Shown here: one piece after another, positions 16,113 to 55,720 of the stretch
Position numbering within the stretch: the stretch's first letter is position 1
How the letters are laid out: every line of letters starts with the position of its first letter
Source of the DNA: Bradymonadales bacterium
GTDB lineage: Bacteria; Myxococcota_A; Bradymonadia; JAFGEP01
Direction: 5' to 3'
Assembly (NCBI GenBank): GCA_016931535.1
Contig: JAFGEP010000114.1
Location: forward strand, 26,412 to 90,411
DNA length: 64,000 nucleotides
Position numbers and translations under genes: made by a program
The notes under the pieces: generated by a model
Database searches by the model: none
The model's input: the letters and a program-made list of their open reading frames with translations, nothing else
What the model was told of the DNA's origin: nothing

Positions 16113-16337
16113 CCAGAAATCGAGCGGACGGTCAATATGGTACCAGAGCCCTGCACATTTTGGGCCAGTCTTTAAGGCACATCCCGCCTGAGGTCTTCCG
16201 CTCATCCGCAGGGATATGACCTGGGCGTCGCCAGGGCTCTCGACTGTGAATGCTCGTCCACACTGGATACGGTTGACAACCCCGTTGTGGCAGAGGAGAA
16301 AGAAAACCGATCCACTTCAAGACACAAGGAGGCCAAC

Positions 16338-17010: not shown

Positions 17011-18681
17011 ATGCTCAACTACAGATCGGTACTGGTTGCGATTCCATTCGTCTTTTGCACGCTGGCATCCGCCGCAACGGTTCAGGCAAACGGGGGGCCG
17101 GTTGGTGGAACCACGGTCACGGGGAGCGGGGGGGTAGCGCCGGTACGGCAGGAACAGATCCGCCTGGTCTCGGAGGATCTGGAGATCAGGATGAACGACG
17201 ACCTCGATACCTACCATGTCACCGCATACTACGTGCTGTCCAACCCGGGGCCGGAGACGGAGGTCCTGTTCGGGGTGCCGGTTACCTGGTCAACGACCGC
17301 CATTCACTTCGACGACCTGGAGGAGTACATGACGGTACCCGGGCCAGATATGGCCGGGTGGCGAAGGGCGCGGTACCCGCGGTGGGCCGAAGAGGCGGCC
17401 ACGGAGCTGGATCGGATCCGGGCGAACATCCAGATCCGGCTGGGAGATACGGCTTTCTCCTGCGAGATGCGGAATGACCTGCAGGCCTTGGAGAGCCAGG
17501 AGGAGGGCACGGGAGAGGAGGCTGCGCCATCGCCTGGGAATCGACCTCGTCGCCTGGATTGGGACGGTTGGCTGGACATTATTATCCCGGACGAACCCAC
17601 GGAATTTCAGCAGGACCAGATCGACCACCTGGCGGAGTACCCCATGGAGATCCAGCCGATCCGAGCCTGGTGTGTAGCGCCGATGGTGATCCCTCCTGGA
17701 GATTCGATCGAGCTGACCCTGAGCTATGACGGAGCCTTGTGGTTCTCCGATCTGCTGTGGAGCAAGGGCATCTACACCGACCATTCCCTCCGCCTCCTGA
17801 GCTACCTGTTGTTCCCTGCAGGCTACTGGGCTGGGCGGGTCGAGCGCCTGAATATCCGCGTCGACCTGGGGCCGCACAGCGACTACCTGGTGTTTTCTCC
17901 CCCCGGCAAGCAACGTGTGGACGACAGCCTGGTCTGGAGCCTCACCGATGTCGATCTCTCGGAGCTCTCCCAGCTGGTGATCACCTTTCGAACTGGACGT
18001 TTTCTCCACGTGCGGGAGATCGCCCGCTGGAACCGCACCAACCCCCATGGAACCAACTTCCGATTGCAGGCTAGCGCCACCAGCGAGCGGGCGGCCGAGC
18101 CGGATCGCGAGTTCGCTGCTGCCAACGTCATCGACGGTGATGAGCACACCGCCTGGTGCGAGGGGGTGGACGGCGCCGGGGTGGGCGAGTCGCTCACCTT
18201 GACCTTCGCTCTGCCCGAGGGTATGGCGGGATTCGATTCCTACTGCCGGGTTCACGGCATCGCCCTGGGGTACGGAGACACCCGCGACGCGACTACCTAT
18301 GGGGCCACCAACCGGGTCCGGCGGCTCACGGTCTTTCCCTGTGACCAGGAGGTCCCCTTGGGCAGCCTGGTGTTGCGCAATGAGCCGGCAACCGACCACC
18401 GCCTGGCCTTTACGGAAGGGCTCAGGTTCGTTGATGACCCGAGAGACCGCCGGGACGATGAGGAGGAGGAAGGGTCGGGATCGGTTGTGCAGACCGTGTC
18501 CCTCGATGAGCTGTTCGAACGGTTTCGGCTCCCGAGTTCCCACCGCCGATCTCAGCCAGCCGTTGCTGAGGACCAGCCCCCTCCGGAGCTCTGCCTGCGC
18601 TTCGCCATCGAGGAGGTCGTGGAGGGGACCAACGGCCACACCTGCATCTCCGAGATCATCCCCTTGGTGGGATGCCAGTGA
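17011..18681 (+). CDS. Secreted protein with a C-terminal F5/8-type C (discoidin)-like domain
   Basis: Signal MLNYRSVLVAIPFVFCTLASAATVQA. The segment AANVIDGDEHTAWCEGVDGAGVGESLTLTF resembles the discoidin DGxxxTxW motif. Confidence 0.55.
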   Translation: MLNYRSVLVAIPFVFCTLASAATVQANGGPVGGTTVTGSGGVAPVRQEQIRLVSEDLEIRMNDDLDTYHVTAYYVLSNPGPETEVLFGVPVTWSTTAIHFDDLEEYMTVPGPDMAGWRRARYPRWAEEAATELDRIRANIQIRLGDTAFSCEMRNDLQALESQEEGTGEEAAPSPGNRPRRLDWDGWLDIIIPDEPTEFQQDQIDHLAEYPMEIQPIRAWCVAPMVIPPGDSIELTLSYDGALWFSDLLWSKGIYTDHSLRLLSYLLFPAGYWAGRVERLNIRVDLGPHSDYLVFSPPGKQRVDDSLVWSLTDVDLSELSQLVITFRTGRFLHVREIARWNRTNPHGTNFRLQASATSERAAEPDREFAAANVIDGDEHTAWCEGVDGAGVGESLTLTFALPEGMAGFDSYCRVHGIALGYGDTRDATTYGATNRVRRLTVFPCDQEVPLGSLVLRNEPATDHRLAFTEGLRFVDDPRDRRDDEEEEGSGSVVQTVSLDELFERFRLPSSHRRSQPAVAEDQPPPELCLRFAIEEVVEGTNGHTCISEIIPLVGCQ

Positions 18682-40547: not shown

Positions 40548-42920
40548 TCACTGGCCGTAACCGGACAACTGGGAGAAGGCATCGGCCAGCGTCGACCCGA
40601 GCTGGCTCCAGAGGGCCGAGAGACCCTCGAAGTCGATCTCCTCCTCGTGAGGTGAAATGGCTTCGGTGATGGCGTCGATGAGGACGCCGAAGATGTCTCC
40701 GAAGCCTTCGGCCTGTGCGATGGCCTGGGAGAACTCCTCGACCTTTGCCGAAGCCTCGGCGATCATCTCGTCGAGCATGGCGCCGTAGTCCTCGAGCCAC
40801 TCAAGGACACTGTCGACCATACCCAGGACCTCATCCAGGGCCGCAATGATGGTGGTCTTGGCAAAATCGATGGCCTGTTGAAGCTGGTCGCGTACCCATT
40901 GCATGGTCGAGGCAGCCGCATTCTGTGCCGTGTCCGACACCCATTCGGCGGCGTTTGCCAGCCAGCTATCGCCATAGTCGGACGGCTGCGGATCGGGAAT
41001 GTTGGGCAGGGTGAGGCCCAAGATGGTGTTCTTGGCCGAATCCATCCCCTCCTTGGCTCCCTCGTTGGCCTCCTTGGCCTGCTGGATGAGCTCCTGGAAT
41101 CGAGCGAATCCTGCGAGCTCCTCGCTGAACTGCTGGACACCCTCGGCGAGCTTGTTCTTCAGCCAGGTGAAGGGTTCCTCGCCTTCGGTCACCTCCATGA
41201 TCATCGACTGGATCCCTTCTCGGGCAGCATCGATGGTGCCGCTGATGCCATCGACGATCGTCTGGCCAATGCCGTACACTTCCTGGACGATGCTGAGCTC
41301 TTCCCCGACCTGGGCGGCCCCTTCGGGCAGGACCACCTCTGTTGGGCTGGCTGGTTCATCGGCAGTTTGTACGGCCTTGCGACTGATCGGCCCCGTGTAC
41401 TCCCTGCCCTCTGAGCTTGCTCCCAGGCCTCCGAACCATATGGTCAGGTTCTGAAGAATGAAGGCGTCTGCCGCTTTGGCGAACTCTTTTGCCGCTTTGG
41501 CGCCGCCCTTGGCCCCCAGGAAGAACGTTCTCAGGGTCTCGGCGTTGGAGAACCCACCGGTGCACAGGTCGAAGATGTTGACCAACGCTCCGATGGTGTC
41601 GGCGACCGCGTTACAGATGAAGTTGTTGCGGATGTTCATGAGATCCGCGTACTCGGCGGATTCGGTCGGGAAATTGGCGGCCAGCTTCTGGGCCTCCAGC
41701 GCAACGCTGATGTCAATTCCAATCGTGACGCCGCTGAGCACGCTCTGGACGATGTCCAGAACCTCGGATATCCCAGCAGTCAGAGGGGTGAACTCGACGG
41801 TGACGACGGCCACCGTGATTCCATCCTGGACGAGCTGGTCGACGTATTGAACATGCCCGATGATGTTGTTCAGGCCGTTCACTAACGTTCGCGCGATGAT
41901 CAGGGCCTCGATCGGCCCGGCTCCCTGGACCTTTCGAAGTGTTTCCAGGTACTGCCCCATCTCGATGCCATCAGCCACCGCGCCGGCGTACATCCCATAG
42001 CCGGGAACGAGTCGGCCAACTTCCAACACAGCACGCGCGACGTTGCTCTCGACGCCGCTGAAGAAGGAGTGCCAGTCGTATGCCTGGGGAGATACCCCGG
42101 CGGAGGTCACCGAGGTCTCCACCGCATACTCCTGGCCCTGTGCCACGGCGGCGCCAGCCTTGTCTGCCTCGACCTCGTGACGCCTCGCAGGTGGACCCCC
42201 TGAATCCTTGGCTTGAACGGCGCCGGTGTGCTTGGCTCCCTCTTCCTTGGCTTGAACCCGGTCGCCCTTGGCCTGTGCCGTGTCTCTCTTGGCCTGTACC
42301 GTTTCCTTCTTGGCCTGTGCCGTGTCTTTCTTGGTCTGTGCCGTGTTTTTCTTGGTCTGTGCCGTGTTTTTCTTGGTCTGTGCCGTGTCGCTGTCGGCTT
42401 GTGCCGTGTTTCTCTTGGTCTGTGCCGTGTCGCTGTCGGCTTGTGCCGTGTCTTTCTTGGTCTGTGCCGTGTCGCTGTCGGCTTGTGCCGTGTCTTTCTT
42501 GGTCTGCTTGGCTTGAACCGACGGACCTGCAGAACCCTGCTGAATCACGTGAGCCAGCTCGTGCCCCATCAGCTCGACGTCGGTTGGGCTGGCCTGGGCG
42601 GCGACGTGAATGTCGCTGCCCATGGTGACGGCCTTGGCCTGATAGGACTCGGCGACGCCATCGCCGTGATGTACGCGAACCCCGGAGAAATCGGCATGCA
42701 GAGAGTTCTCGGCCTTGGCCTGAACCGCCGAGTCCAAGGATTGCGAGGTGCCTGAGGCCTTTGGCGGTGGTACCGGCACATCCGGTTTCAACATGGCGGC
42801 CTGTTTATGGGGTGGCAAGTTGGCAAGATCCCGCTTGAACTGCGTTGTTTGAGGACGATCGGTGGTCTTTCGCTGGGCTGTGCGGGTGTGCTCGACTGAT
42901 TTGCTCTTTGACTGGTGCAT
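40548..42920 (-). CDS. DUF4157 (zincin-like HExxH) domain protein with internal KKDTAQT tandem repeats and a roughly 500-aa acidic helical C-terminal domain; effector/toxin-like
   Basis: ADFSGVRVHHGDGVAESYQAKAVTMGSDIHVAAQ...DVELMGHELAHVIQQG is the DUF4157 hallmark. No signal peptide. Start at MHQSKSKS (42920). Confidence 0.75.
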   Translation of the reverse strand: MHQSKSKSVEHTRTAQRKTTDRPQTTQFKRDLANLPPHKQAAMLKPDVPVPPPKASGTSQSLDSAVQAKAENSLHADFSGVRVHHGDGVAESYQAKAVTMGSDIHVAAQASPTDVELMGHELAHVIQQGSAGPSVQAKQTKKDTAQADSDTAQTKKDTAQADSDTAQTKRNTAQADSDTAQTKKNTAQTKKNTAQTKKDTAQAKKETVQAKRDTAQAKGDRVQAKEEGAKHTGAVQAKDSGGPPARRHEVEADKAGAAVAQGQEYAVETSVTSAGVSPQAYDWHSFFSGVESNVARAVLEVGRLVPGYGMYAGAVADGIEMGQYLETLRKVQGAGPIEALIIARTLVNGLNNIIGHVQYVDQLVQDGITVAVVTVEFTPLTAGISEVLDIVQSVLSGVTIGIDISVALEAQKLAANFPTESAEYADLMNIRNNFICNAVADTIGALVNIFDLCTGGFSNAETLRTFFLGAKGGAKAAKEFAKAADAFILQNLTIWFGGLGASSEGREYTGPISRKAVQTADEPASPTEVVLPEGAAQVGEELSIVQEVYGIGQTIVDGISGTIDAAREGIQSMIMEVTEGEEPFTWLKNKLAEGVQQFSEELAGFARFQELIQQAKEANEGAKEGMDSAKNTILGLTLPNIPDPQPSDYGDSWLANAAEWVSDTAQNAAASTMQWVRDQLQQAIDFAKTTIIAALDEVLGMVDSVLEWLEDYGAMLDEMIAEASAKVEEFSQAIAQAEGFGDIFGVLIDAITEAISPHEEEIDFEGLSALWSQLGSTLADAFSQLSGYGQ
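42200..42520. repeat. In-frame 21-bp tandem repeats (about 15 units) inside the DUF4157 gene, encoding (K/R)(K/N)DTAQ(T/A)/ADSDTAQT repeats
   Basis: ggtctgtgccgtgtttttctt / ggcttgtgccgtgtcgctgtc units are visible on the + strand. Confidence 0.75.
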
Positions 42921-43181
42921 CTTCAACTTCCGGCTGTTGACTGACCCTAAACGCCTATAAACGTAAGGTTGACTTGTCTGCTGACAATCCCGATTTGTGC
43001 GGTTTTTTTGATCGGTTGCGGTGAGCTGCTGGCAGTTGGAAGGTAAACCAGCTAACATTCAGACAGGTGGCTGTCGAGGAGGGGAAAGGCTGGGTAAAAC
43101 ACAGGGTGGGCTCAACGGAACTTTCTTCTATTTCTGTATTCTTCTTGTCGGGAATTGTGGTAATCCAAGGGGGAGCGGCAG

Positions 43182-45341
43182 ATGACGACAGCTCAATCGT
43201 TGGATGGCCAGGGCGCCCTTCGGTTCGAAAACAATCGAGAGTATATATCCTGGGAGTTCGGCAGGCTTCGGCGGCAGATGGAGGCCTACATTCGCCTCCA
43301 AAATGACCACAGTTTTGCCGATGAGTACTATGATCTTCTGGGGCGTCTGGCAGTCGAGCGACAGGTTGCCGTTCAGGCTCGGAGGGAAGCGGTGTCTCGA
43401 GGGGTATCGATTCCCTTCGAGCAGTTGTCCCGTCGTTTTCACTTGACCGGCGAGGATGAAGAGATCCTCCTGTTCTGTTTGACACCCCAGCACAGTCACA
43501 CGGTCTGGAACGTGCTCGTCGCTGCTCAGGGCAACCTGCTGAAACCCTACCTGGAGGTCGGTTTCGTTGCTGAGCGGGTGAGACCTGCAGCCGACCTGGT
43601 GACCGACAGGCCGTGGTACAAGCCCAACTCGGCTCTGGTAAGGAACGGCCTCATCATGATCGAGGCTCCAGAGGACGGAAGCTCGGCGGGTATATTGTGC
43701 CATTCGGTCCGCGTTCCCTACTTCGTGGCGTCCATCATCATGGGTCGGGATTCCCTGGAGAACCGCTTGACGGATTTCTGCGAGTTGACCTCTCCCACTA
43801 CGGAGCCCTTCGAGGTAGTGCTTCCCGAACAGACTCGACAAACGGTCGACGGGTTCATCAAGTCCTTCTACCGCGGCCAGATCCCACTCGAACTGGAGCA
43901 GAAACCGCGTACCATACTCATCAACGGGCCGGCTCAGTGTGGCAAGACGACGCTGGCCAGGTCTTTGGCCTGGGCCTTCCGTCGTCCTCAGCTCACGGTA
44001 TACCTCGATCGGCTTCCCAAGCAGTCTGATGGCGCACAGATGCTCCAGCTTGCTTTTCACAATGCGCGGCTCCTGGGGGCCATTCTGCACATGAACCGCC
44101 CGGAACAGCTCTTGGAGATCGACCCTCAGCTGATCGGTTGTCTGTGTAATTTCGTGGACCAATATCAAGGATTGGTAGTGTTCGAGTCACAGCAGCCGGA
44201 GAAATTGGGTGTTCTGCTCAAACTGGTCGATCTTGTGATACACCTCGATTATCCCGAATTTGAGGAGCGGGAGCAGCTGTGGGAGTCGCTCATTCCGCCA
44301 GATGTCCAGCTGGCCCGTTCACCCGGGCTCAAGGAGTTGGCGAGTGTGTATGAGCTGACGGGTGGCCAGATCAAGCGGGCCATCGAGTGGGCGAAGCAGC
44401 TCGCTGACGCCCGGGATGACCAGCAGGTCTACCATGACGACTTGCTGGCGGGAGCCCAGAGCCAACTGAGATCGCGGATCGGTGATTTCGCCGTGCCGAG
44501 CAAGGCGAGGCTCACCTTGGACGACCTGGTGCTTCCCCAGGGTTCGCTGGATCTCGTCAAGGAGTTGCTGCAAGCGTGCAGATATAATCAAAAGGTCATG
44601 AGCGAGTGGGGATTCAGCAAGCGTTTGGTGACCGGGCGGGGTCTGGTGGCCTTGTTCACTGGAGATCCGGGTACGGGAAAGACACTGTGTGCTGAAATTC
44701 TTGCCCAGGAATTGGGATTATCACTTCACATCGTGAGTATCCCCAAGATCGTGAGCAAATGGGTGGGGGAGACCGAGCAGCACATCCGCGAGGTGTTTCA
44801 GCAAGCCAGGGCACAGAATTCCATGCTGCTTTTCGACGAGGCCGACTCCCTTTTCAGCAAGCGGGTGCAGGTGGAGCGTTCTCAGGACCACTACTTGAAC
44901 ATGGAGGTCAACATGTTCCTCCAGGAGATCGAGCGGTTCGAAGGCATCACCTTGCTCACCACCAACCTGGAGACCAACATCGACCGCGCCTTTCAAAGGC
45001 GGATCCTCTTCAAGATCGAGTTCCTCATGCCCGGCCAGAAGGAGCGAGAGAAAATCTGGCGGAGACTCATTCCCCAGGAAACACCTCTGGAACAGGGCAT
45101 TGACTTCGAGTTTCTCGCTGAAGCGTTCGAGCTTTCGGGTGGTCAGATCAAGAATGCCATTATCCGTGCTGCCTACCAAAGCTGCGGTGATGGCGGTGTG
45201 GTATCTCAGGGGCACCTGGAGAAAGCTGCACAACAGCAAGCGAGAGCCGACGGAAAGCTGACTCGGAGCATGGAAACCATGAAAAAGGAAAGAGATGCAA
45301 AACGGGCTGGCAAGGACCTCCACCCCACAAGCAGTAAATGA
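43182..45341 (+). CDS. Double-domain AAA+ ATPase (CDC48-like), transcribed divergently from the DUF4157 gene
   Basis: D1 Walker A ILINGPAQCGKTTLARSLA. D2 ALFTGDPGTGKTLCAEILAQELGLSLHIVSIPKIVSKWVGETEQHIREVF...LLFDEADSLF (Walker B) ...TTN (sensor-1). RBS aagggggag before the ATG. Confidence 0.85.
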   Translation: MTTAQSLDGQGALRFENNREYISWEFGRLRRQMEAYIRLQNDHSFADEYYDLLGRLAVERQVAVQARREAVSRGVSIPFEQLSRRFHLTGEDEEILLFCLTPQHSHTVWNVLVAAQGNLLKPYLEVGFVAERVRPAADLVTDRPWYKPNSALVRNGLIMIEAPEDGSSAGILCHSVRVPYFVASIIMGRDSLENRLTDFCELTSPTTEPFEVVLPEQTRQTVDGFIKSFYRGQIPLELEQKPRTILINGPAQCGKTTLARSLAWAFRRPQLTVYLDRLPKQSDGAQMLQLAFHNARLLGAILHMNRPEQLLEIDPQLIGCLCNFVDQYQGLVVFESQQPEKLGVLLKLVDLVIHLDYPEFEEREQLWESLIPPDVQLARSPGLKELASVYELTGGQIKRAIEWAKQLADARDDQQVYHDDLLAGAQSQLRSRIGDFAVPSKARLTLDDLVLPQGSLDLVKELLQACRYNQKVMSEWGFSKRLVTGRGLVALFTGDPGTGKTLCAEILAQELGLSLHIVSIPKIVSKWVGETEQHIREVFQQARAQNSMLLFDEADSLFSKRVQVERSQDHYLNMEVNMFLQEIERFEGITLLTTNLETNIDRAFQRRILFKIEFLMPGQKEREKIWRRLIPQETPLEQGIDFEFLAEAFELSGGQIKNAIIRAAYQSCGDGGVVSQGHLEKAAQQQARADGKLTRSMETMKKERDAKRAGKDLHPTSSK

Positions 45342-45433: not shown

Positions 45434-47893
45434 TCACGAGTGGGGAGTCAGCTCCAGGCGAACCTGCCGGAAATCGCCCACGACCAGGCGGTTTTCCCGC
45501 ACTTCGGCTGGAGCGCCGTCCACGACAGCGCTCTTCAGCTCGGCGCCGTGGAGGACCACCTGGGCATTGGAGTGGTCGGGGTCGAACTCACCTCGGCTGG
45601 AACGCTCGAGCAGCAGCGTGTCGCCCTGGCGCATAAGCTGGAAGCGATCGAGCCGGAACGGGCCGTACCCGTCGCCGGCGTCGCGGTAGAGCGATCCCGA
45701 TTCCTGGGCGGAAGGCTCACCGGTTGCGCCGACCGGTACCCCCTCCTGCGCATGGTTGCTCGATTCGTTGCCCTCAGGAAGCGGTGCATAGAGGTGCAGA
45801 ACCAGGCGATCCGCTTTTTCGGTGGGGAGAACCGCGCCGCTTCGGACGAAAAGGCCGATCCGCTCCAGCGGGGTATCCACCTGATGGGGGCCGGGGCCAG
45901 AGAGTAGGCGGTCGTTCCAGAAGCTGTACCAATCGCCGTTCGGGAAGAGCACCTGCCGGCGCTGGCAGCCGGGTTGGAGGACCGGGGCGACGAGCAGCGA
46001 GGGCCCCAGCAAGAAGGTATCGTCGATGGTCCAGTGCTGCGGCGACTCGGGTTGCTCCCAGAACAGGGGGCGCACCAGCGGGTGGCCGGTCTGGCTGGCC
46101 TGGTAGGCCAGGGTGTAGAGGTAGGGGAGCAACCGGTAGCGAAGAGACAGAAACTCTCGGAGGATGGCCTGGGTGGCGGTGCTGTGGCACCAGGGCTCGC
46201 GATGGGCGGTGAAGCCGGCCGAATGGACACGAAAGAACGGTAGCAATGCGGCCAGCTGGAACCAGCGCACGAACAGCTCCTCGTCGGGGTTTCCGCTGAA
46301 CCCTCCGATATCGGGCCCGCTGTAGGGTACACCCGACAACCCCATCGACAGGGCGATGCGGAGGGACTGAGCCAGACTCCACCAGTTGGTCTCGCAATCG
46401 CCGGTCCAGGTCCAGGCATAGCGCTGCAGGCCGGCCCAGCCCGACCGGGTCAAAAGCCAGGGCCGCCGGTCGGGTCGCAACCGCTGCAAAGCCTGGAACG
46501 CGGACTGGCATTCCAGCTGGCCGTAGAGATTGTGGGCCTCCAGGTGATCTCCCCCTCTTTTCTCCAGGTCATGGCGAGTCACGGTAGGCAGAGTGGTGGC
46601 GCCCCAGGCGGTGAAGGCGGCCGGCTCGTTCATGTCGTGCCAGAAGCCGTGGGCGCCCTGCTCCAGGAGAAACTCGTACTGCTCGCCCCACCAGTCTCGC
46701 ACCTCGGGGTCGGTGAAGTCGGGGAACAGGCAGTTACCGGGCCAGACCGGCGCCACCACCGGCTCGCCGCCGGGCAGCTTGCAGAAGGTGCCGCGGGCTA
46801 TACCGTCCTGGTAGAGGTCGTAGGCGGGATCCCGCTTCACCCCCGGGTCGAGGATCACGACCGTGTGGATGCCCTTGGCGGCCAGCTCGGCGGTCAGTCC
46901 AGGCAGGTCGGGGAAGCGCTGGCCATCCACCGTGAACACCCGGTAGCCGTCCATGTAATGGATGTCGAGGTGCACGGCGCTCAGTGGCAGCCGGTGGTCC
47001 GAAAATCCCTGCACCAGGTCTCTGACCTCCCCCTCGTCTCGATAGCTCCAGCGAGACTGGTGGAACCCCAGCGCCCATCGGGGGGGCAACGGCGGCCGTC
47101 CGGTGAGCTCGCCATAGCACTCCAGCAGGCGCGCCGGGGGGCCGACCGCCAGGTAGTATCGCAGAGCGCCGCCCTCGAACGAGGCGTGGACTTCGTCGCT
47201 GAAGGAGATGGTGGCATCGAACGGGTTCTCGAAGAAGGTGAGGTGGCTCCCCCCGGGATGGATGGCCAGGTAGACGGGGATGCCGATGTAGAGGGGGTCG
47301 TCGCCGGGTCCATACTGTCCCTTGGGCTCCCGGTTCCACATCCGGAATCGGCCGCCTTTCAGGTCGAGTGGTGCCGTGCGTTCACCCAGCCCGAAGTAGT
47401 GGTCGTCGGGATTGGCCTCAAAGCGGGCCAGCCAGCGGCCGCCGGTGTGTTTCGGGGGGAGATCGTGGCGGAGCAGGGATCCCTCGGGTCGGATCCAACG
47501 CAAGGATCCATCGGTGCCGAGCTGCAGGGTGATCTCTGCGGTATCCAGTCTCCAGCCATCGGGGGTCTCGGTTGTCTTTACCGGCACATCCGCCCACTCT
47601 GTTCTCTGGATGGCGTAGGGGATGGGGAGAGATCCCGGTTGCCAGGTGATCCGGACGAAATCTGGTGCCAGAAAGCGGATCTCCAGCTCGGACTCGGCAT
47701 AGTGGCAGCGAAGGCCGCTGGATTCAGGCGTCAGGCTGATAAGCGGTCCGGGCTCCGATGAGGGGGCAGGCCGCGGCTTGTTTCGACCGGCCCGCCGTTC
47801 CAGGGCGCCCAGTCGGATGGTGTACCTCAGGGCGGCGACCAGGTTGCTCCACCCGATGTAGCTCAGCCCTCTGATCTTGGAGAGAAGGTCCAT
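45434..47893 (-). CDS. Glycoside hydrolase family 31 (alpha-glucosidase/alpha-xylosidase-like)
   Basis: GFWHDMNEPAAF (catalytic nucleophile region WiDMNEp), and RPWLLTRSGWAGLQRYAWTWTGD (the general acid/base region). Confidence 0.85.
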   Translation of the reverse strand: MDLLSKIRGLSYIGWSNLVAALRYTIRLGALERRAGRNKPRPAPSSEPGPLISLTPESSGLRCHYAESELEIRFLAPDFVRITWQPGSLPIPYAIQRTEWADVPVKTTETPDGWRLDTAEITLQLGTDGSLRWIRPEGSLLRHDLPPKHTGGRWLARFEANPDDHYFGLGERTAPLDLKGGRFRMWNREPKGQYGPGDDPLYIGIPVYLAIHPGGSHLTFFENPFDATISFSDEVHASFEGGALRYYLAVGPPARLLECYGELTGRPPLPPRWALGFHQSRWSYRDEGEVRDLVQGFSDHRLPLSAVHLDIHYMDGYRVFTVDGQRFPDLPGLTAELAAKGIHTVVILDPGVKRDPAYDLYQDGIARGTFCKLPGGEPVVAPVWPGNCLFPDFTDPEVRDWWGEQYEFLLEQGAHGFWHDMNEPAAFTAWGATTLPTVTRHDLEKRGGDHLEAHNLYGQLECQSAFQALQRLRPDRRPWLLTRSGWAGLQRYAWTWTGDCETNWWSLAQSLRIALSMGLSGVPYSGPDIGGFSGNPDEELFVRWFQLAALLPFFRVHSAGFTAHREPWCHSTATQAILREFLSLRYRLLPYLYTLAYQASQTGHPLVRPLFWEQPESPQHWTIDDTFLLGPSLLVAPVLQPGCQRRQVLFPNGDWYSFWNDRLLSGPGPHQVDTPLERIGLFVRSGAVLPTEKADRLVLHLYAPLPEGNESSNHAQEGVPVGATGEPSAQESGSLYRDAGDGYGPFRLDRFQLMRQGDTLLLERSSRGEFDPDHSNAQVVLHGAELKSAVVDGAPAEVRENRLVVGDFRQVRLELTPHS

Positions 47894-48087: not shown

Positions 48088-48894
48088 CTACTGGGAGGTC
48101 AGCGTGACCCGGGTGGCGGTGTAGGTTCCGATAAAATGCCAGGCGTCTTCCCTCCCGTCCTCATCGGTGTCCAGGTCCATCGGGATCTGCATGGTGTTGA
48201 AGAAGGTGACGAAGTCGCTGCCCATGATGGAGATCTGAGCGGCGTCCTCGGCAGTCAGGGCACCGTCCAGGACCCCCTCGGCGATGGCCGATCCGTCGGC
48301 CTCGAACCACCCAGACAGATGAAGGAACTTGATGGGCAAGGTGGGCGGGTCCAGCAGGTCGTTGGGGAACACCAGCGAGGCGGGTTCGATCGTATGGAAG
48401 TAGCGCCCCGACAGGTTGCACCCCAGCTCGCTCGTCTCGTCCGAGAAGGAGTAGGACTCGCCCGAGGCCTCCCCGGAGCCGATCACCAGGCCAAGCTCGC
48501 CATTGGTGCGGTTGTCTTCGCTCACCTGGATCAAGACGTTGAGCAGTCCGTCACCGATCTGCTCGGAAAAGTAGCTGTTGAGGCTATCTCCCATGAACCC
48601 CGTGAGGGGGGCGGTGAGGATCAAGCTGTCGAAGCGGTATCCCATCGAGGTCAGGTCATCGGCGGTCATCTGGCCGTAGTCGGCCTGCTGGCTGTCGCCC
48701 GTGCCGGCATCGCACGACGGGCAGGGGCCGCAGTCCACGATCACGACGGGGGTGTTGGGCCGGAGTGGGTCGCCGGGCAGTGCGGATTGACCCATTCCGG
48801 TGTACTGCTCGTCGATCCCGCATACCGACAACAACATGGCCAGGAGCAAGGATCCTGCCACAAGCAGGGCCACAGGAAAAAGCCGGTGGTGCAT
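48088..48894 (-). CDS. Acidic secreted lipoprotein of unknown function
   Basis: MHHRLFPVALLVAGSLLLAMLLSVCG lipobox, CGPCPSCDAG motif. Confidence 0.55.
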   Translation of the reverse strand: MHHRLFPVALLVAGSLLLAMLLSVCGIDEQYTGMGQSALPGDPLRPNTPVVIVDCGPCPSCDAGTGDSQQADYGQMTADDLTSMGYRFDSLILTAPLTGFMGDSLNSYFSEQIGDGLLNVLIQVSEDNRTNGELGLVIGSGEASGESYSFSDETSELGCNLSGRYFHTIEPASLVFPNDLLDPPTLPIKFLHLSGWFEADGSAIAEGVLDGALTAEDAAQISIMGSDFVTFFNTMQIPMDLDTDEDGREDAWHFIGTYTATRVTLTSQ

Positions 48895-49019
48895 CGCGGT
48901 TCTCCCCTCGGGTTGCGACCGGAGATAGGGACACTCAACCAGGGGTTTGGGCGCAAGTCAACGGTCTGTTGTCGAGGGAAGGGTGATAGGGCGCCTTTGG
49001 GGGCATCCCGCCCAGCATT

Positions 49020-49125
49020 TCGCGAATATTGGAAATTTTACACCATTGCGTTTGACAAACTAATCCTTATCATTAAACAAACTGCCGAGTATATACGGCA
49101 TATTGTTTTATAAAAGACGAGGTTC
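49020..49125 (+). promoter_or_regulatory. Strongly AT-rich island upstream of the second DUF4157 gene, with sigma70-like hexamers (TTGACA at about 49053; TATCAT at about 49068; TATAAA at about 49109)
   Basis: cgcgaatattggaaattttacaccattgcgtttgacaaactaatccttatcattaaacaaactgccgagtatatacggcatattgttttataaaagacgagg is far below the genomic GC. Confidence 0.5.
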
Positions 49126-51057
49126 ATGATGCAGAAGAACCACAAAGATGAGTCAGCTTATTCTGCAGGCAATGAGCTAGAAAACTCGATCGCCTCTGCA
49201 ATGGGGTCTCCCGTGCAGCTTCGGCAGGACATGGTGGGGCTCACCCCGGGCGAGCAGAACGAGCGGCTGAAGCCGAGCCGTCCGGTGATGATGGTCCAGG
49301 CCTCGGGTGGAGCGGGAGAGGCGGACAGCCAGCAGATCAAGTCGGCGGCGGCCACGGGTCTCCAGCAGCCCTCCAGTCCAATGCCGCACCTGGAGGCGAT
49401 CCAGCAGAGCTTCGGTGGTCACGATATCGGCGGGGTGAAGGCGCATGTCGGCGGTCTGGCCGCTCAGGCCAGCACCTCGATGGGTGCCAGCGCCTACACG
49501 ACCGGCAACGACATCGGATTCAAGAGCGCGCCCGATCTGCACACGGCGGCTCACGAGGCGGCTCACGTGGTTCAGCAGAGAGCCGGCGTCAACCTGTCTG
49601 GTGGTGTCGGAAGGGTGGGTGACGCCTACGAGAAGCACGCGGACGCCGTGGCGGACCGGGTGGTCCAGGGCCGGTCCGCAGAGAGCCTGCTCAATACCCA
49701 TTCGGGGAGGTCAGCAAGCCAGAGCGGTGTCCAGCAAAGCTCGGTGCAGCGCGATCCGGATGACAAGGCTCCCCCCCAGCATTTCTTGAATGCCGATGGA
49801 AACATCATCTCCGACTGGGCGGCTGCGGTGTTTGCCACCGCCATTCGGTGGGAGCGGATCTGCAAGGCCCAGACCGACACCTGCAACACCTGGTACAACA
49901 TGGCCAAGGAAGAGGATCCTCCTCCGGCCTGGGTGGGCATTCTCAAGGCTGCGATCACCATTGGTGTCGGAGCCTTGACCGGAGGGATCGGGGCGGTTGT
50001 CGTGTCGGGGCTGGTCAACGCAACCACCAAGGTCGCCACCGAATTCATTATCAACGCTGCGGTGGAAGCGGGAAAGGGGATCGTGCAGAAGGCAGCGGAA
50101 GAAGGGGTCAACCTGGTCTCCCAGACCTGTGGGGGAGACGGGCTGTTGGCCTACGCTGCGGGTCAGCAGGAGACCATCAACAAGGTCGTCAACCAGGAGC
50201 AGCTCAAGACCTTGGCCACCATCAGCACCCTGGCCAAGCTCCCCGAAGACCAGAAATGGCAGGGGCTGAACGACCTGTACAAGGCGCTGGAGAAGAGCCG
50301 AGCAGATGCGGCCAAGCTGCAGATGGCGCAGTGCGTCGAGGGCTGGTTTTCCATGCTGGCCCAGAACAAGTATGGCAAGAATCTGACCATCGGCGGCGTC
50401 CGGGTGACCGACATTCCGGGGATTACCTATGGGGCGGCTTTGTTCATCGCCACGATCTACTCCAGTCAAGGCAGCCTCGATGGACTCTCCTCCTACTTCA
50501 CGGACATGCTGGACAAAGGGTTGGGGAAAAACTGGCGCAACATGGGGGTCGGCTATTCGGTCTCGACCGGCACCCTGGTTGATGAATGGGCGACCTCTTC
50601 GGTAGGGACGATCGGGTTTCATCTCAAAACCTCTTACGACCCCACCCAGAGTGTCACGGTCCAGTACTGCGAGATGGAGTCCAGCAAGGGCAACAACAAG
50701 GCGATCCGGACCTACTTTCTCAACAGCCCGAAGCCGGTCAAGGATTACAAGATGCCCAAGGTGGTGATCGCGGAGGAAATGTGGACCAGGCAGCATAGCT
50801 TTCTCGGCAACTTTTCTCTGGCCTGGGACGAGTCCAGCAAGGGGCTCAAGATAAATACGTATGGAGGCGGAGCGATCAAAGACGATTCGGATGACAACGC
50901 GGGCAGGTCCTGGATTGCCATGCATGGGAAGAACACCAAGTCCAAGATGTCCGCCTCGGAGGTTTCGGCCTATCTCTGGTCTGGAGTGGCACGGATCGAG
51001 AAGGACGTGCTGGGCAAATCCCTGAAGGGGTTGGGGGTCGGCTCCATCGACACCTAG
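49126..51057 (+). CDS. DUF4157 (zincin-like) domain protein with a roughly 430-aa unique C-terminal domain; effector/toxin-like
   Basis: [23 protein letters not shown]...[31 protein letters not shown] is the DUF4157 hallmark. The first roughly 25 codons are AT-rich. No signal peptide. Confidence 0.75.
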
Positions 51058-51098: not shown

Positions 51099-51710
51099 AT
51101 GGGTGACCGTGCCCTTTGGGATACCTTGCTTCGTGAAGCCGAGAACCTGGATGCGGCCGGGGAACGGGTGCGGGCCATCGAGGTGGCCAGAGAGGCCATC
51201 GCGGCAGCGAAAGATGAGCTGCCTCCCACCGATCTCCGACTGGCTGAGGCCTATCATACGCTATCGAGCCTCCTGGTCGATCCCTCCGAGGTCGCGGACG
51301 CCCTGCAACAGGAGATCGAGATCCTGGCTGCCCAACGACCGGCGTCCGACCCCGCCATCGGTCGCATTCTCTCCGCCCTGAGTCGGGCGTTGTTAGCCGC
51401 TAAGCGCTTCGATGAGGCTGGTCCCGTCATGGAGCGCGCCATCGGGCGGATCAAGGCCACCGAAGGGCCGAACAGCGAGTCCTTGGGGCTGGAGCTCTTG
51501 GTGATGGGCGACTTTCTGCGGTACGGCGGACGGCTGGAGGACGCCGAGCTCCGCTATCGCCAGGCGCTATCGGTAACCGAACAGCTTCGGGGGGCTGATC
51601 ATCCGGATGTGGCCGACATCCTCGATCGACTGGTGGACATCTTGGCCGAACGCGGGCAAAGCGACGAGGCCCAACTCTTGTTGGATCGGATCCACCAGAT
51701 CCGCGGTTGA
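51099..51710 (+). CDS. Small TPR-repeat protein immediately downstream of DUF4157 gene 2; candidate immunity/chaperone
   Basis: Three to four TPR-like helical hairpins (AEAYHTLSSLL, ALSRALLAAKRFDEAGPVMERAI, LVMGDFLRYGGRLEDAELRYRQAL). 41 bp after the upstream stop. Confidence 0.6.
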   Translation: MGDRALWDTLLREAENLDAAGERVRAIEVAREAIAAAKDELPPTDLRLAEAYHTLSSLLVDPSEVADALQQEIEILAAQRPASDPAIGRILSALSRALLAAKRFDEAGPVMERAIGRIKATEGPNSESLGLELLVMGDFLRYGGRLEDAELRYRQALSVTEQLRGADHPDVADILDRLVDILAERGQSDEAQLLLDRIHQIRG

Positions 51711-51959
51711 CCCAACCGCCGTTTTTCGGTCCCTCTCCTTCATCGGTCCATACTAAGGAGTGCTCATGCTTCGCTGCCGGGCAGGTGTCGGAGCTTGTAG
51801 CACCGGGGTTTTCAATCGATCTGCCCCATGGCAGATCGGGCGAGGGCTCCAGCCGGTTCACATCGGGAACCGGTAGTCCGAGGGGTGCCAGGCGAATTCG
51901 AATCCATCCAGGGAACAAGTCGGAAACCGGCTCTCCGGCGCGTTGTAGCCCGATGCGAC

Positions 51960-54900
51960 TCAATCCAGGTAAGCGGACAGCAGATCGTGCCAGGGGGGAG
52001 AGGCACCGTCGGGATGCAGGTTGATTCTGCCTTTCAGCGTGCCGACCAACCGTCTATCGGACGGTTTGTGAGGGCTGCAGCGCCTCGCCGATTCTCGTGC
52101 CCTTTCCAAATGGTCGAGTGAGAGGGCGATGTGGCCTGTGGTGCAATGGCCGGCCACCAGGTAGAAAGGACTGTTAACCAGGTTTTCCGCCACGTTCAGG
52201 GCATCGGTCCATCGGCCGACGCCGAACTCGGAACGGCATGCAAGCCACCATCCTTGAGGCCAGGAGGGCTCCAAGGCGCAGATCTCTTCTGCGCAGGTCC
52301 GCACAAGCCCCCAGAGCCCCTCGCCTGCCAGGGCGGCGCCGGTCAAGAACAGCAGGACCGGATGGTGGCCGAAGGCTTTCATGGCTTCGTTACCCTGACG
52401 AATGGCCTCGCCGTACTGGTGAGAAGCCACCAGCGCCTTCAACGATTCCTCGGTGCCGGCTTGCGGATTCGCCTCCCGTGCCAGCATGTGGGCCGTCTCG
52501 ATCGCTCTGTCATACTGCCCCAGGCCACGGAAGGCTTGGCACAGTCGTCGGCGAAAGGGCAGGCTGCCAACTTCGGCCGGTAGGGCCGATCGCTCGACAA
52601 AGGCGACCAGCTCGGCCCAGGACTCGGCCTCGGCACAGGTGGTGAGATAGAGCTCGCGAGGTCGCAATCCCTCCATGGAGTGCAGCTGGTATTGCCGGGC
52701 CGCCTGGTGGGCTTTGAGGGGCTGACCCAGATCGAGCAGGGCCAGGACGCTGGCGATCTGCTCGGCGGGTTGCTCACCGGCCAGCTCGTTCAGCAGCGCT
52801 TCCAGTTGCCCGGCGGCCGCGTATGCTCCCCGTAGAGCCCAGCCCAGTATAGGGTCGGAGGGGGTCAGTTCGACCGCTTTTTCGACGGAGGCGATGGCGG
52901 TTCCGTGGTCTTTGGTCCGGCTGGCGGCGTCGGCGAGCAGCAGAAGGTCATCCACCTGGGGCTCGCCGGGTCCCAGACCCTCCTGGGCGAGTCGCAGGGC
53001 CTGGTCGTTCCGATCCTGGCGGATCAGCAGGTGGTAGAGTAGCTGGCGCCACCAGCGATCCCCAGGGAAAAGCCTCAGCATCTCCTGGGCGAGTCGTTCG
53101 ACGGGAGGGAGGGACAGCGCATCCGCCTTCAATGCGAGCTTTCTCAGGGGTTCTCGCAGGGCGAGGGGAGGTTCGTCGAGCGGGCGGATCATCTCTGCAA
53201 GGTCTGACAGCTGGGTTTCCGACAACACGTCGAGGGCGGTGAGCGCTTCGACCGCCTCTTCGAGGGAATCCGCGGCCTTGGCGGCCCGGAAGAGCAGGCG
53301 AGCCTGTGGGGGCGAGCTGGACAACCCAAAGGCTGTCCGGGCCGCCTCGATCGCCTCCTGTGGCCTGGCGGAGTGCAGCAAGGAGCGGGCCAAAGCGTTG
53401 GTGCAGGACACCGTCTCCGGATGGGCCTGTACCGCCGCCTTGGCGGCCTCCACGGCTTTTTGCACGTCGTTGCTGGCGAGGAGGGCCAAGGCGCGGATCG
53501 CAACCAGATCGGGGCGGGCTTGCAGTTCGGGTGGAAGATGGCCCAGGGCATCGAAAACGACCTCCGGTTTCCCGGTCATCACGCCAACCTGTGCCCGGGC
53601 CACCCAGGCTTGCGGCGAGGCGGCCGGCGTGGCGACCAGGGACTGGCTTCGTTGCAGTGCCAGTGCGGCTCGGCCAAACTCCAAGATGGCCATCCAGTGT
53701 GCCGTTGGAGGGGAGGCGATCTCCTCTGCGGTGAGGGACAACAGCTCTCGCGCCACCTGGAACCCTCCCAGCGAGAAGGTTCGAGCCGCCTCGGCCAGGG
53801 CGCTGTCGAGATCACCAAGCTCGAAGAGGGCACCGGTCAAGGCGGCTCCAGCCCGCGTGCCGATGTCTGCTCCTGCCTGCCGGACGATTTGGACGGCCTC
53901 GATGGCGAGGTGGAGCAAGGTGGCAGAAAGCATCGAGGCGTCCTGTGGTTGTAGACAAGCCAACAGAAAGCTGTCGATGGCGATCGACTCCAGGTCCTCT
54001 ATAATCGGTTCCTTCCAGTTACGGGCCAAGAGCCGGTCGATCCGCTCCTTCAGGAGGGTCACACCGAGGCTGGGCGACCGATCGATCAGCTCGAGGCAGT
54101 CGGCGTGGGAGAACGGTGGCGGCAGCAGGTGGAGCTTGCAGCGGGTGAGCTCCAGGAGGCATTCCGGACTGTTCGGGAAGGTGGCCACCGCCTCTTCTGC
54201 CACCGATAGCGCTTCGTCGTAACGCTGCTGGAGACGGAGCGTACGAACCAGGAGCTGGCGGGCTTCCCAGCGATCCGGCTCTTTCGCTGTGATCCCACGC
54301 AGGATCTCCTCGGCCGATGCGAGACGTTCGAGGTCGATCAATAGGCGGGCTCGAGTCAGTAGAACAGCGGTCGAGCGTCCTTTTTCCAGCAGCTCCAGTA
54401 TTTGTGCGGCTGCCGGGAGCTCGCCTCTGTCGAGCAACTGTGTCGCCAGCAAAACCGCCTGATCCACGGAGTCTTGCTGTGACAGGGCCACCGAGTAGAT
54501 GCTTCGCACCCCCATGGATCCGAGAGGGAGCACGTCACCGGTTGGTGGCTGTTTTGGCGGCAGCGGAGCACCTTGCAGCGCTTCGGCAACGGCCGCGGAG
54601 GAGGCGAAGCGGTCATCGGGATGCCTCTGCAGCAGTCGATCCACCACATCGACAAGTTTCTTGGGAGCCTGGGGACAAAAAGTGGCCAGCGACGGTGCCG
54701 GCTGTAGCACATGCTGACCGGAAGGGTGCGCCTCGGGAAATGGCAGGCGACCCGCCGCCAAACGAAACAGGATGACCCCCAGGGAGTACAGGTCGGCGCG
54801 CGGATCCACCAGGCGATCGACATGATTGGCCAGGGCGATGGTTTCCGGCGCTTTGAAATGGGAGGTGCCGATCGGCCCGATCGAGCGCTGTTCATGCAGG

Positions 54901-55406
54901 CTGGCCAGCTCCCAGTCGATGATGGCGGTCGACAGTTGCCCCTGGGAAGAGCGGTGCAGGATGATATTTCCAGGGGCAAGATCCCGATGGATGACTCCGC
55001 GCTCGTGTGCCTCGGCCAAGATCCGGCTCGCCAGGATGCCGATCTCGGACACCACGGCAAAGCGGTCGACCTCATCGACAGGGAAGAAAGTGGCGGAGAC
55101 CCCTTCCAGCCACTGCATGGCGACGTATGGCCTGCCCTCGTCGACCCCGTACTCCACCAGGCGGGGCGTGCCTTGGCCGTCCAGGCGTTCCAGGACTCTG
55201 GCCTCGTGAGCGCGCAGGCATCCCACGGCCCCAGCGCCCCAGAGAATCGGCGCCAGCTCTTCCAGCTTGATCTTTCCCAGGGCGCGGGACATGGGGGTCA
55301 GCTTCAGGGAGACCATCTGCCCCGAGGGCTCGTGAATCGCGCGGTAGACGTGGCACCCCGGTTTCAGGCGGACGGTTTCTTCGATCTGGAAGGAGGCGAT
55401 CTTCAT
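51960..55406 (-). CDS. Eukaryotic-like Ser/Thr protein kinase fused to a roughly 850-aa TPR-repeat region
   Basis: VSLK (VAIK-like), HRDLAPGNIIL (catalytic loop), DWELAS (DFG variant), GTSHFKAPE, DLYSLGVILFRL, then long TPR-like helical repeats. Confidence 0.85.
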   Translation of the reverse strand: MKIASFQIEETVRLKPGCHVYRAIHEPSGQMVSLKLTPMSRALGKIKLEELAPILWGAGAVGCLRAHEARVLERLDGQGTPRLVEYGVDEGRPYVAMQWLEGVSATFFPVDEVDRFAVVSEIGILASRILAEAHERGVIHRDLAPGNIILHRSSQGQLSTAIIDWELASLHEQRSIGPIGTSHFKAPETIALANHVDRLVDPRADLYSLGVILFRLAAGRLPFPEAHPSGQHVLQPAPSLATFCPQAPKKLVDVVDRLLQRHPDDRFASSAAVAEALQGAPLPPKQPPTGDVLPLGSMGVRSIYSVALSQQDSVDQAVLLATQLLDRGELPAAAQILELLEKGRSTAVLLTRARLLIDLERLASAEEILRGITAKEPDRWEARQLLVRTLRLQQRYDEALSVAEEAVATFPNSPECLLELTRCKLHLLPPPFSHADCLELIDRSPSLGVTLLKERIDRLLARNWKEPIIEDLESIAIDSFLLACLQPQDASMLSATLLHLAIEAVQIVRQAGADIGTRAGAALTGALFELGDLDSALAEAARTFSLGGFQVARELLSLTAEEIASPPTAHWMAILEFGRAALALQRSQSLVATPAASPQAWVARAQVGVMTGKPEVVFDALGHLPPELQARPDLVAIRALALLASNDVQKAVEAAKAAVQAHPETVSCTNALARSLLHSARPQEAIEAARTAFGLSSSPPQARLLFRAAKAADSLEEAVEALTALDVLSETQLSDLAEMIRPLDEPPLALREPLRKLALKADALSLPPVERLAQEMLRLFPGDRWWRQLLYHLLIRQDRNDQALRLAQEGLGPGEPQVDDLLLLADAASRTKDHGTAIASVEKAVELTPSDPILGWALRGAYAAAGQLEALLNELAGEQPAEQIASVLALLDLGQPLKAHQAARQYQLHSMEGLRPRELYLTTCAEAESWAELVAFVERSALPAEVGSLPFRRRLCQAFRGLGQYDRAIETAHMLAREANPQAGTEESLKALVASHQYGEAIRQGNEAMKAFGHHPVLLFLTGAALAGEGLWGLVRTCAEEICALEPSWPQGWWLACRSEFGVGRWTDALNVAENLVNSPFYLVAGHCTTGHIALSLDHLERARESARRCSPHKPSDRRLVGTLKGRINLHPDGASPPWHDLLSAYLD

Positions 55407-55720
55407 GAGTCCATTACAGGTCCTTGGCAAGCCCTCGTGCCTGGTGATCATCCACGAATCACCGGTCGAGTTCAAGGTCTACAAGGCAAGCGGGTTTTCA
55501 AGACCGTTCAACGTCGGAAGGGTTGAAGCTTTCGGTGTAGGGGCGGTTGGGGCGGCTGTCGCCTGTTGTCTCCGTAGGAAAAGACTGGAACAATGAGCAA
55601 GCCCGGTCAGGCGGAGCCCGACGAGCCCGCAAGGTCGCCTCGCCGGATCGGCCGGCTGATGGCCTGTGTCACCCTCAACCGGTTTTGGGGGTTACCCTGT
55701 CGAATGGAGTGATGCTGATG

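Follow-up and report, generated by a model that had tools for sequence, protein, structure and literature searches.

We analyse here a short AT-rich block in a 64,000-nucleotide stretch of DNA from a Bradymonadales bacterium (GenBank assembly GCA_016931535.1, contig JAFGEP010000114.1), which we call the window. The block lies at the start of gene 2, one of the genes of the window that encode a DUF4157 (eCIS_core) protein. DUF4157 marks toxins associated with extracellular contractile injection systems (eCIS), as reported by Geller et al. 2021 (PMC8213781). Attention had been drawn to the block by an interpretation made from the letters of the DNA, the sequence-only reading. We built a local map from Pfam matches and from gene calls based on the GC content of third codon positions (GC3). 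The features at the block and on either side of it, in window positions, are as follows.

48088 to 48894, minus strand: lipoprotein-like divergent neighbour, 268 amino acids (aa), with a signal peptide and the lipobox-like N-terminus MHHRLFPVALLVAGSLLLAMLLSVC
48895 to 49125, no strand: divergent intergenic region of 231 bp, from the open reading frame (ORF) map and the GC3-based gene calls
49017 to 49190, no strand: AT-rich block, 174 nucleotides (nt), 36.2% GC, from a maximum-likelihood two-boundary segmentation
49119 to 49122, plus strand: Shine-Dalgarno sequence GAGG, 3 nt upstream of ATG 49126, 6 nt upstream of ATG 49129
49126 to 51057, plus strand: DUF4157/eCIS_core gene 2, 643 aa (Pfam PF13699, E 7.5e-14, 52 bits against a cut-off of 22)
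49126 to 49212, plus strand: head of gene 2, codons 1-29, polar and predicted to be disordered, with AT-rich codons, upstream of the NCBI start at GTG 49213
51099 to 51710, plus strand: TPR protein, 203 aa (Pfam TPR_12)
51703 to 51719, plus strand: terminator-like hairpin and T-run at the end of a two-gene unit, gene 2 and the TPR gene

The low GC content of this patch is real and statistically extreme. The mean GC of the 64 kb is 64.1%, below the 68% or so that the sequence-only reading had assumed for the genome. That reading was close to the mark on the patch itself: its estimate of 35% for the stretch upstream of the start (49020-49125) compares with a computed 34.0%, the first 25 codons (49126-49200) are AT-rich as it had said, at 45.3% GC, and the full range that it had named, 49020-49210, comes to 39.8%. 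The sliding-window check that it had proposed shows a strong local drop, so the composition is not uniform. At scales of 60, 100, 150 and 190 nt the block is the lowest-GC spot of the window. The 100-nt minimum, 0.31 at position 49016, lies about 6.5 standard deviations under the mean (0.641, standard deviation 0.051), and the segmentation gives fairly sharp edges near 49017 and 49190. Among the 31 intergenic regions of the window, the one upstream of gene 2 has a 60-nt minimum of 0.28 and the next-lowest reaches 0.40. Of 39 gene starts, that of gene 2 has the lowest GC over 25 codons, although its GC3, 0.52, is undercut by other starts, which go down to 0.48. An assembly artefact was considered and rejected, as run SRR13394437, assembled independently, gives the same sequence across the block.

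In the divergent intergenic region the GC content is about 60% over the left 118 nt or so and about 34% over the right 110 nt or so, and the block consists of this gene-2-side half together with the first 22 to 25 or so codons of gene 2. Gene 2 and its left-hand neighbour point away from each other, so the promoter of gene 2 must lie between 48895 and 49125. This is the strongest argument for a promoter here, and it is independent of consensus boxes. The same interval probably also holds the promoter of the lipoprotein-like gene, whose 268-aa product has no Pfam family match. On the other side, the TPR gene follows 41 nt downstream of gene 2 in the same orientation, and the two are probably in one operon. 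A gene of about 204 aa also comes after the DUF4157 homologue in the related loci L001-L003.

We consider it probable that the block is the native expression-start region of this two-gene unit, a DUF4157 cargo-type gene and then a TPR gene. The patch is best read as an ordinary, if extreme, promoter, leader and set of first codons, and we find no evidence for a new kind of element. It would fall into three parts. The first would be some 110 nt of non-coding promoter and 5' untranslated DNA, comprising a region for the binding and melting by RNA polymerase, a 40-bp palindrome and then the GAGG. The second would be the adjacent ATG pair at 49126 and 49129, one or the other serving as the start. 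The third would be the first 22 to 25 or so codons, encoding the polar, disordered head of an N-terminal region that, if gene 2 behaves like characterised eCIS cargo, would be a loading signal that an AAA+ ATPase helps to recognise. The low GC of this coding part would come about half from the amino acids used and half from A/T-ending synonyms near the start. As a compositional curiosity the block matters little, since genomes rich in GC can be expected to have AT-rich promoters and gene starts.

Is the AT-rich head of gene 2 coding at all? The NCBI protein (P0001, 614 aa) begins at GTG 49213, which is V30 of the longer form and lies past the block. With that start, or with one at ATG 49201 or ATG 49231, the whole block would be non-coding, and gene 2 would have an upstream region of about 318 bp with a 174-nt AT-rich regulatory tract. 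In keeping with such a gene model, the head has a lower GC3 than is usual in the coding DNA of this genome, and a 29-codon open frame at about 40% GC is not improbable (roughly 15% by our own estimate). The evidence on the other side is of several kinds. GAGG precedes the two adjacent ATG codons, and nothing comparable precedes 49201 or 49213. An independent gene call gives 642 aa with a start at 49129. The paralogues and homologues all carry a polar leader of 25-39 aa ahead of a common motif (gene 1; P0051 and P0056, which come from the same sample; P0025, P0029, P0034 and P0047), and the residues directly upstream of V30 are conserved, with 'GSPVQLRQ' in gene 2 against 'SAPVQLRG' in P0009 and 'SPGHVQLKG' in P0008. 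Finally, the GC content at the codon positions of the head follows the order GC3 > GC1 > GC2, which looks coding. For these reasons the long form is favoured over the NCBI start: the AT-rich head is coding, and the shorter gene model is distinctly unlikely. The start of P0001 is likely a start-codon mis-annotation. The corrected gene model is of practical value, as the public annotation cuts away the first 29 residues of the disordered N-terminal region. A small antisense ORF at 49038-49145 (35 aa, TTG start, no ribosome-binding site) was judged to be a by-product of the AT-rich composition.

The AT-richness of the head can be divided between the peptide and the choice of codons. Many residues of the head peptide (K, N, E, S, D, H and Y) have AT-rich codons, and under the codon usage of the window the first 25 codons would have an expected GC of 0.554, against the 0.453 observed. 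The head lies 19 points below the window mean, of which about 9 are due to amino-acid composition and about 10 to synonymous choice. A/T-ending synonyms are used at 13 of 26 informative head codons, compared with 20% in the gene body (p=7e-4). A drop of GC3 over the first 25 codons is also found in gene 1 (-0.17), P0051 (-0.20), P0056 (-0.21) and P0009 (-0.14); that of gene 2 is the strongest, at -0.28, and a 5' drop is present in many other genes of the window. Since the paralogues, the homologue P0009 and many window genes share it, the drop in the head is the strongest case here of the 5' bias that GC-rich genomes show in general. In such genomes a 5' excess of A/T-ending codons keeps the initiation region weakly structured. 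The start window of gene 2 from -30 to +40 folds with -10.6 kcal/mol, compared with a gene-body mean of -19.0 kcal/mol. This is the fourth weakest fold of 38 genes, with gene 1 second. Gene 2 thus combines the excess of A/T-ending codons and the weaker local fold by which an AT bias of the 5' coding region is recognised.

The locus shares several features with the AT-rich promoter and start regions known from GC-rich genomes: a divergent intergenic site directly upstream, a ribosome-binding site and ATG, the A/T-ending codons, the weak start window and a GC3 drop that recurs in paralogues. It is unlike them in its extreme depth (31% against 64%, the lowest in 64 kb) and in that no canonical -35/-10 pair can be called.

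These two differences are among the observations that weigh against reading the block as an ordinary start region, and they are set out here together with two others. The promoter boxes involve the following features.

49052 to 49057, plus strand: exact TTGACA hexamer, read in the sequence
49046 to 49073, plus strand: best relaxed sigma-70-like candidate, TTGCGT-16 nt-TATCAT, at 3/6 + 5/6 = 8/12, below the usual threshold

The sequence-only reading had seen recognisable TTGACA and TATAAT-like hexamers here. The hexamers are present, including TATCAT (49068), TATATA (49090), CATATT (49099) and TATAAA (49109), but TTGACA lies at the wrong distance from every one of these, given that 16-18 nt are needed; 16 nt past it stands TAAACA, which does not have the conserved T6. 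A consensus scan, for which we required TTGACA-like and TATAAT-like boxes 16-18 nt apart with A2 and T6 in the -10 box, found no pair in 48500-49500. The same scan over 20 kb found 2 sites where 2.8 were expected from shuffles; because of this it has no discriminating power in this organism and neither proves nor disproves a promoter. The relaxed candidate listed above implies a predicted transcription start near 49080. The placement of the AT-rich block next to gene 2, where its promoter must be, does bear the sequence-only reading out. No sigma-54 site (TGGCAC-N5-TTGC, with GG and GC 12 nt apart) was found on the plus strand of 48895-49125 at up to 2 mismatches. One related locus does have a perfect sigma-54 consensus, TGGCACGTCTATTGC (L001, 5932-5946), some 55 nt ahead of where the homologue P0009 starts. 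As a rule for the family sigma-54 was rejected, since merely 3 of 81 related loci have an upstream site scoring at least 9/10.

The translation start is the next point. In models of longer transcripts the Shine-Dalgarno sequence is predicted to be mostly paired, in weak A-U-rich structures, with a probability of being unpaired of 0.09-0.38. The unstructured start that the sequence-only reading had envisaged is thus only partly borne out: the -30 to +40 window fits it, the longer models fit it less well.

The depth of the block is best judged against related genes. For this comparison we took 81 related DUF4157 loci from Myxococcota-like genomes and searched the 700 nt upstream of each protein match for the 100-nt stretch with the strongest dip in GC. 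The median z of these dips is -2.0, with 6 of 81 loci below -3. The strongest are in L071 (z -5.4) and L082 (z -4.4), and the window has -5.3 on the same measure. An AT-rich upstream feature common to the family was therefore rejected. In the same organism, the 100-nt GC minima are 0.45 upstream of gene 1, and 0.46 and 0.41 around the starts of P0051 and P0056; the gene at 1408-2526 has a lowest upstream 60-nt GC of 0.50. The block of gene 2 is far deeper than the upstream regions of these cargo-like genes, and deeper than those of most of the 81 loci, and the reading as an ordinary start region leaves this outlier depth without explanation. The statement that such islands are typical of tightly regulated toxin genes finds no support here either, given the ordinary dips in the 81 loci and the three other cargo-like genes of the same organism that have no island. 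Islands at least 25 GC points under their locus mean occur 7 times in the 928 kb of the window and related loci (about 1 per 130 kb), and that of the window is the second deepest. They are rare but recurrent, and not tied to the DUF4157 family. The deepest is at 3710-3887 of L031, with 31% GC in a locus of 69% GC. Its place is between two ORFs of the same orientation, and it has nothing to do with the DUF4157 gene of that locus.

The last of these points touches the label of gene 2 as a cargo-type gene. Among the 40 ORFs scanned, which include the large GC3-supported ones of the 64-kb window, none belongs to the structural families of eCIS (sheath, tube, baseplate or spike), a difference from known eCIS cargo systems. 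Because of this the cargo role of gene 2 is proposed by analogy only.

A preprint on AlgoCIS, with its cargo proteins Cgo1 and Cgo2, reports that eCIS cargo is built from a disordered N-terminal region, which is specific to the system and needed for loading, from DUF4157 as an optional part and from a C-terminal domain that varies; that an N-terminal motif is common to cargo pairs of one system; and that loading depends on the AAA+ protein Alg15 (bioRxiv 10.64898/2026.05.27.728243). A loading role of Alg15 and Pvc15 is described in that preprint and in PMC11495950. Gene 2 has a comparable layout, with a disordered N-terminal region (residues 1-66), DUF4157 at about 70-190, a linker and a C-terminal domain (220-643) without a family. 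An AlphaFold model built with 13 homologues has a confidence score (pLDDT) below 50 for residues 1-39 and 43-66, and about 30 for the head (codons 1-29), with the DUF4157 domain predicted confidently. By analogy with these cargo proteins, the N-terminal head may serve as a loading signal. As in AlgoCIS, an N-terminal motif is common to the cargo-like paralogues of the organism. It reads [VL]Q[LF][KRQ]..(~12 residues)..Q...L.P..P and follows the polar leader of 25-39 aa. It was found in four proteins from the same sample, as well as in P0025, P0029, P0034 and P0047, and its sites are given below.

49198 to 49300: N-terminal motif of gene 2
42770 to 42850: N-terminal motif of gene 1
2370 to 2450: N-terminal motif of the gene at 1408-2526
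L084, 4220 to 4300: N-terminal motif
L085, 725 to 810: N-terminal motif

This common motif is a candidate system-specific loading signal, and could serve as a loading tag for the cargo-like proteins of one Bradymonadales genome. The gene at 1408-2526 (minus strand) encodes a 372-aa protein with a similar N-terminal motif, LAGMDYPQQESYLAPAAPVQ, and no DUF4157 domain. Its C-terminus resembles the CdiA-CT RNase A domain (PF18431, E 6e-6), and there is no AT-rich island upstream of it. It may be another effector of the same system.

A further likeness to eCIS cargo systems is an AAA+ winged-helix ATPase gene 4 kb from gene 2, adjoining gene 1. This is the type of protein that is known to load eCIS cargo. 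Nine related loci (L015, L025, L051, L054, L061, L078, L079, L081 and L083) have a homologue of this ATPase within about 6 kb of a DUF4157 gene, with up to 50% identity in a Bradymonadales metagenome-assembled genome. That the ATPase and DUF4157 genes belong to a defence system was rejected, as the similarity to IetA is of a generic AAA kind (130 bits against a cut-off of 510). The C-terminal domain of gene 2 (49780-51054) is without a known toxin fold, in which it is unlike eCIS toxins. Its model has long helices, a Gly-rich hydrophobic helix and a beta-rich end, and its resemblances to apolipophorin-III and to pore-forming toxins of the ClyA, PaxB and AhlC types are insignificant (E at least 0.13). 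Neither by sequence nor by fold was there a significant match in the PDB.

Within the non-coding part of the block there is one structured feature.

49072 to 49111, no strand: imperfect 40-bp inverted repeat ATTAAACAAACTGCCG-N8-CGGCATATTGTTTTAT, with arms 13/16 complementary

Its core is TGCCG/CGGCA around an 8-nt centre, and an equally good inverted repeat arises in 13 of 2000 shuffles of the AT-rich region. The palindrome is the sole lead toward specific regulation at this locus, as a candidate operator in the DNA or as a possible hairpin in the transcript, at or close to its 5' end. In such a reading the block would hold a specific switch: either the palindrome would be an operator over the transcription start, bound by a dimeric repressor or activator, or a weak A-U-rich hairpin, resembling an attenuator or a thermosensor that hides the ribosome-binding site, would hold back expression of the cargo gene until it is required. 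Such a switch would add to the promoter and not replace it. We think it unlikely. The quality of the repeat and its place between the best promoter candidates and the ribosome-binding site speak for it. In a fold of 76 nt, CCUU (49065-49068) pairs with GAGG at the base of the hairpin, but this pairing needs a transcription start upstream of 49065, in conflict with a promoter based on TTGACA. As RNA, the palindrome is barely better folded than shuffled sequence: the 76-nt fold has -14.4 kcal/mol and a marginal z of -2.06 (8 of 200 shuffles), and a 211-nt fold has a z of -1.46. The covariance models of Rfam 15 gave no match, the best scores being 12-25 bits against gathering scores of 40-97.

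The core of the palindrome (49083-49100), together with TATTGTTTTA, was also called as terminator-like, with a mirrored call on the minus strand, which may be counted in favour of a switch. It shares with bidirectional intrinsic terminators a 5-bp G+C-rich stem (TGCCG/CGGCA), an 8-nt loop, an A-rich upstream and a T-rich downstream side. It is unlike them in that the stem is short, the fold marginal and no gene ends here on either strand. The hairpin and T-run of an intrinsic terminator are present, but the place at the 3' end of a transcription unit is not, as both flanking genes start here.

Comparative evidence for the palindrome was sought as well. An exact-match metagenome scan for its core found no match; the closest relatives of gene 2 are at most 45% identical at the protein level, and a genome scan found no orthologue closer than 43%. 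Orthologous DNA was absent from the collections searched. No copy of the block exists elsewhere in the window or in 85 other loci, and no convincing motif is common to the upstream regions of the four cargo genes of this organism. It counts against a switch that neither another copy of the palindrome nor a motif like it is present upstream of P0051, P0056 or gene 1, or in the rest of the window. What the locus does offer is a compact candidate control region of about 110 nt with a palindrome, an entry to the study of effector-gene switching in predatory Myxococcota-like bacteria. A stronger version of the idea is that the block is a dedicated on/off switch of a self-dangerous effector, an easily melted promoter that would be shut by a factor bound to the palindrome or by the A-U hairpin. 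If true, a predatory member of the Bradymonadales would in this way tie cargo production to predation or to the assembly of a contractile injection system. The evidence here does not require such a switch, and we hold it to be very unlikely.

Another way in which AT-rich DNA could act is through a nucleoid-associated protein. Silencers of this kind target AT-rich DNA in GC-rich genomes, and the tract might nucleate an H-NS-, Lsr2- or MvaT-like protein that represses a potentially self-harmful effector gene. The composition would suit this, as these are the most AT-rich 174 nt in 64 kb, and so would the A/T runs near 49036, 49058, 49078 and 49110, which by eye are loosely in helical phase. Like the targets of xenogeneic silencers, the tract lies at the start of an effector-type gene. 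Unlike them, it has just 174 nt, which is short for silencer spreading, and it precedes a gene body of native composition without evidence for horizontal transfer. The other cargo-like genes have no such tracts, and no recognisable silencer candidate is encoded among the ORFs of the window that were scanned. We know of no H-NS-, Lsr2- or MvaT-like silencer in Bradymonadales or Myxococcota, although our literature searches were not aimed at this question. Silencing of this kind is a far-fetched explanation of the block.

The expression-start region of gene 2 appears to be native to this genome. The sequence-only reading had offered a foreign origin of the 5' end as one of two explanations, and we found nothing positive to bear this out. 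Past the first 30 or so codons the GC3 of the gene 2 body is native, at 0.70-0.90, and the lower total GC in its 3' half is due to GC1, that is, to amino-acid content. The block has no similarity to phage or plasmid records. There are no mobile-element families among the Pfam matches of the 40 scanned ORFs, no tRNA gene in the 64-kb window and no att site. Neither a strong flanking repeat pair nor a repeat resembling a target-site duplication was found in 48850-49260. The marks of a horizontally acquired segment (unusual composition across the gene, mobility genes, tRNA or repeat boundaries, or mobile homologues) are thus not seen here, where only a 10-nt inverted pair brackets the block.

A narrower event could still be imagined, in which only the 5' end was replaced: the stretch from the promoter to the first 25 or so codons would have been captured by recombination or insertion from foreign or otherwise AT-rich DNA and fused in frame to the conserved motif. 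The sharp edges of the block near 49017 and 49190 would fit, all the more as the alignment with homologues begins, at SPVQLR, directly past the right edge. The GC3 of the head, 0.52, is far under that of the gene body, though a lower 5' GC3 is general. Most of the block lies between the arms of this 10-nt inverted pair (49040-49049/49198-49207), but arms so short may arise by chance. The downstream order of DUF4157 gene, gene of about 204 aa and opposite-strand kinase is common to L001-L005, and the upstream order, with the lipoprotein-like gene and GH31, is not; at 39-43% protein identity to these loci, such a break in synteny says little. The block is similar neither to the 81 related loci nor to any other part of the window, and the exact-match metagenome scan for the palindrome core has no hit. 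In its length class (25-39 aa) and polar composition the leader is like those of the paralogues and of distant homologues such as P0009, which argues for descent and not for replacement. Taken together, we regard a replaced 5' end as rather improbable.

The order of the DUF4157 gene, the gene of about 204 aa and an opposite-strand Ser/Thr kinase (51099-55475 in the window for the latter two) is found in L001 (7728-10708), L004 and L005 as well. In the loci that share this order the DUF4157 proteins are merely 29-42% identical. The gene order hints at a functional module that would include the kinase.

The remaining features of the local map are the following.

40548 to 42920, minus strand: DUF4157/eCIS_core gene 1, 790 aa from ATG 42920 (Pfam E 2.1e-18)
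42921 to 43181, no strand: second low-GC divergent region, between gene 1 and the AAA+ ATPase gene, 49.8% GC
43182 to 45341, plus strand: AAA+ ATPase with a winged-helix domain, 719 aa (Pfam AAA and WHD)
45434 to 47893, minus strand: GH31 glycosidase
51960 to 55475, minus strand: Ser/Thr kinase-TPR gene

The second of these regions had been described as similar to the block but weaker, which is what we find; its 60-nt minimum is 0.40. Gene 1 contains a tandem array at 42261-42506 with a period of 21/42 nt (5.9 copies of the 42-nt unit, 89% matches). The array encodes a low-complexity linker of the TAQ(A/T)KK(D/N) type between DUF4157 and the C-terminal domain, and its plus strand is without any A across about 200 nt. 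The window also encodes further secreted or effector-like proteins, namely a CotH kinase protein with a C-type lectin domain (14283-16205, minus strand) and a protein with an NAD-glycohydrolase translocation (F5/8 type C) domain (17011-18681, plus strand).

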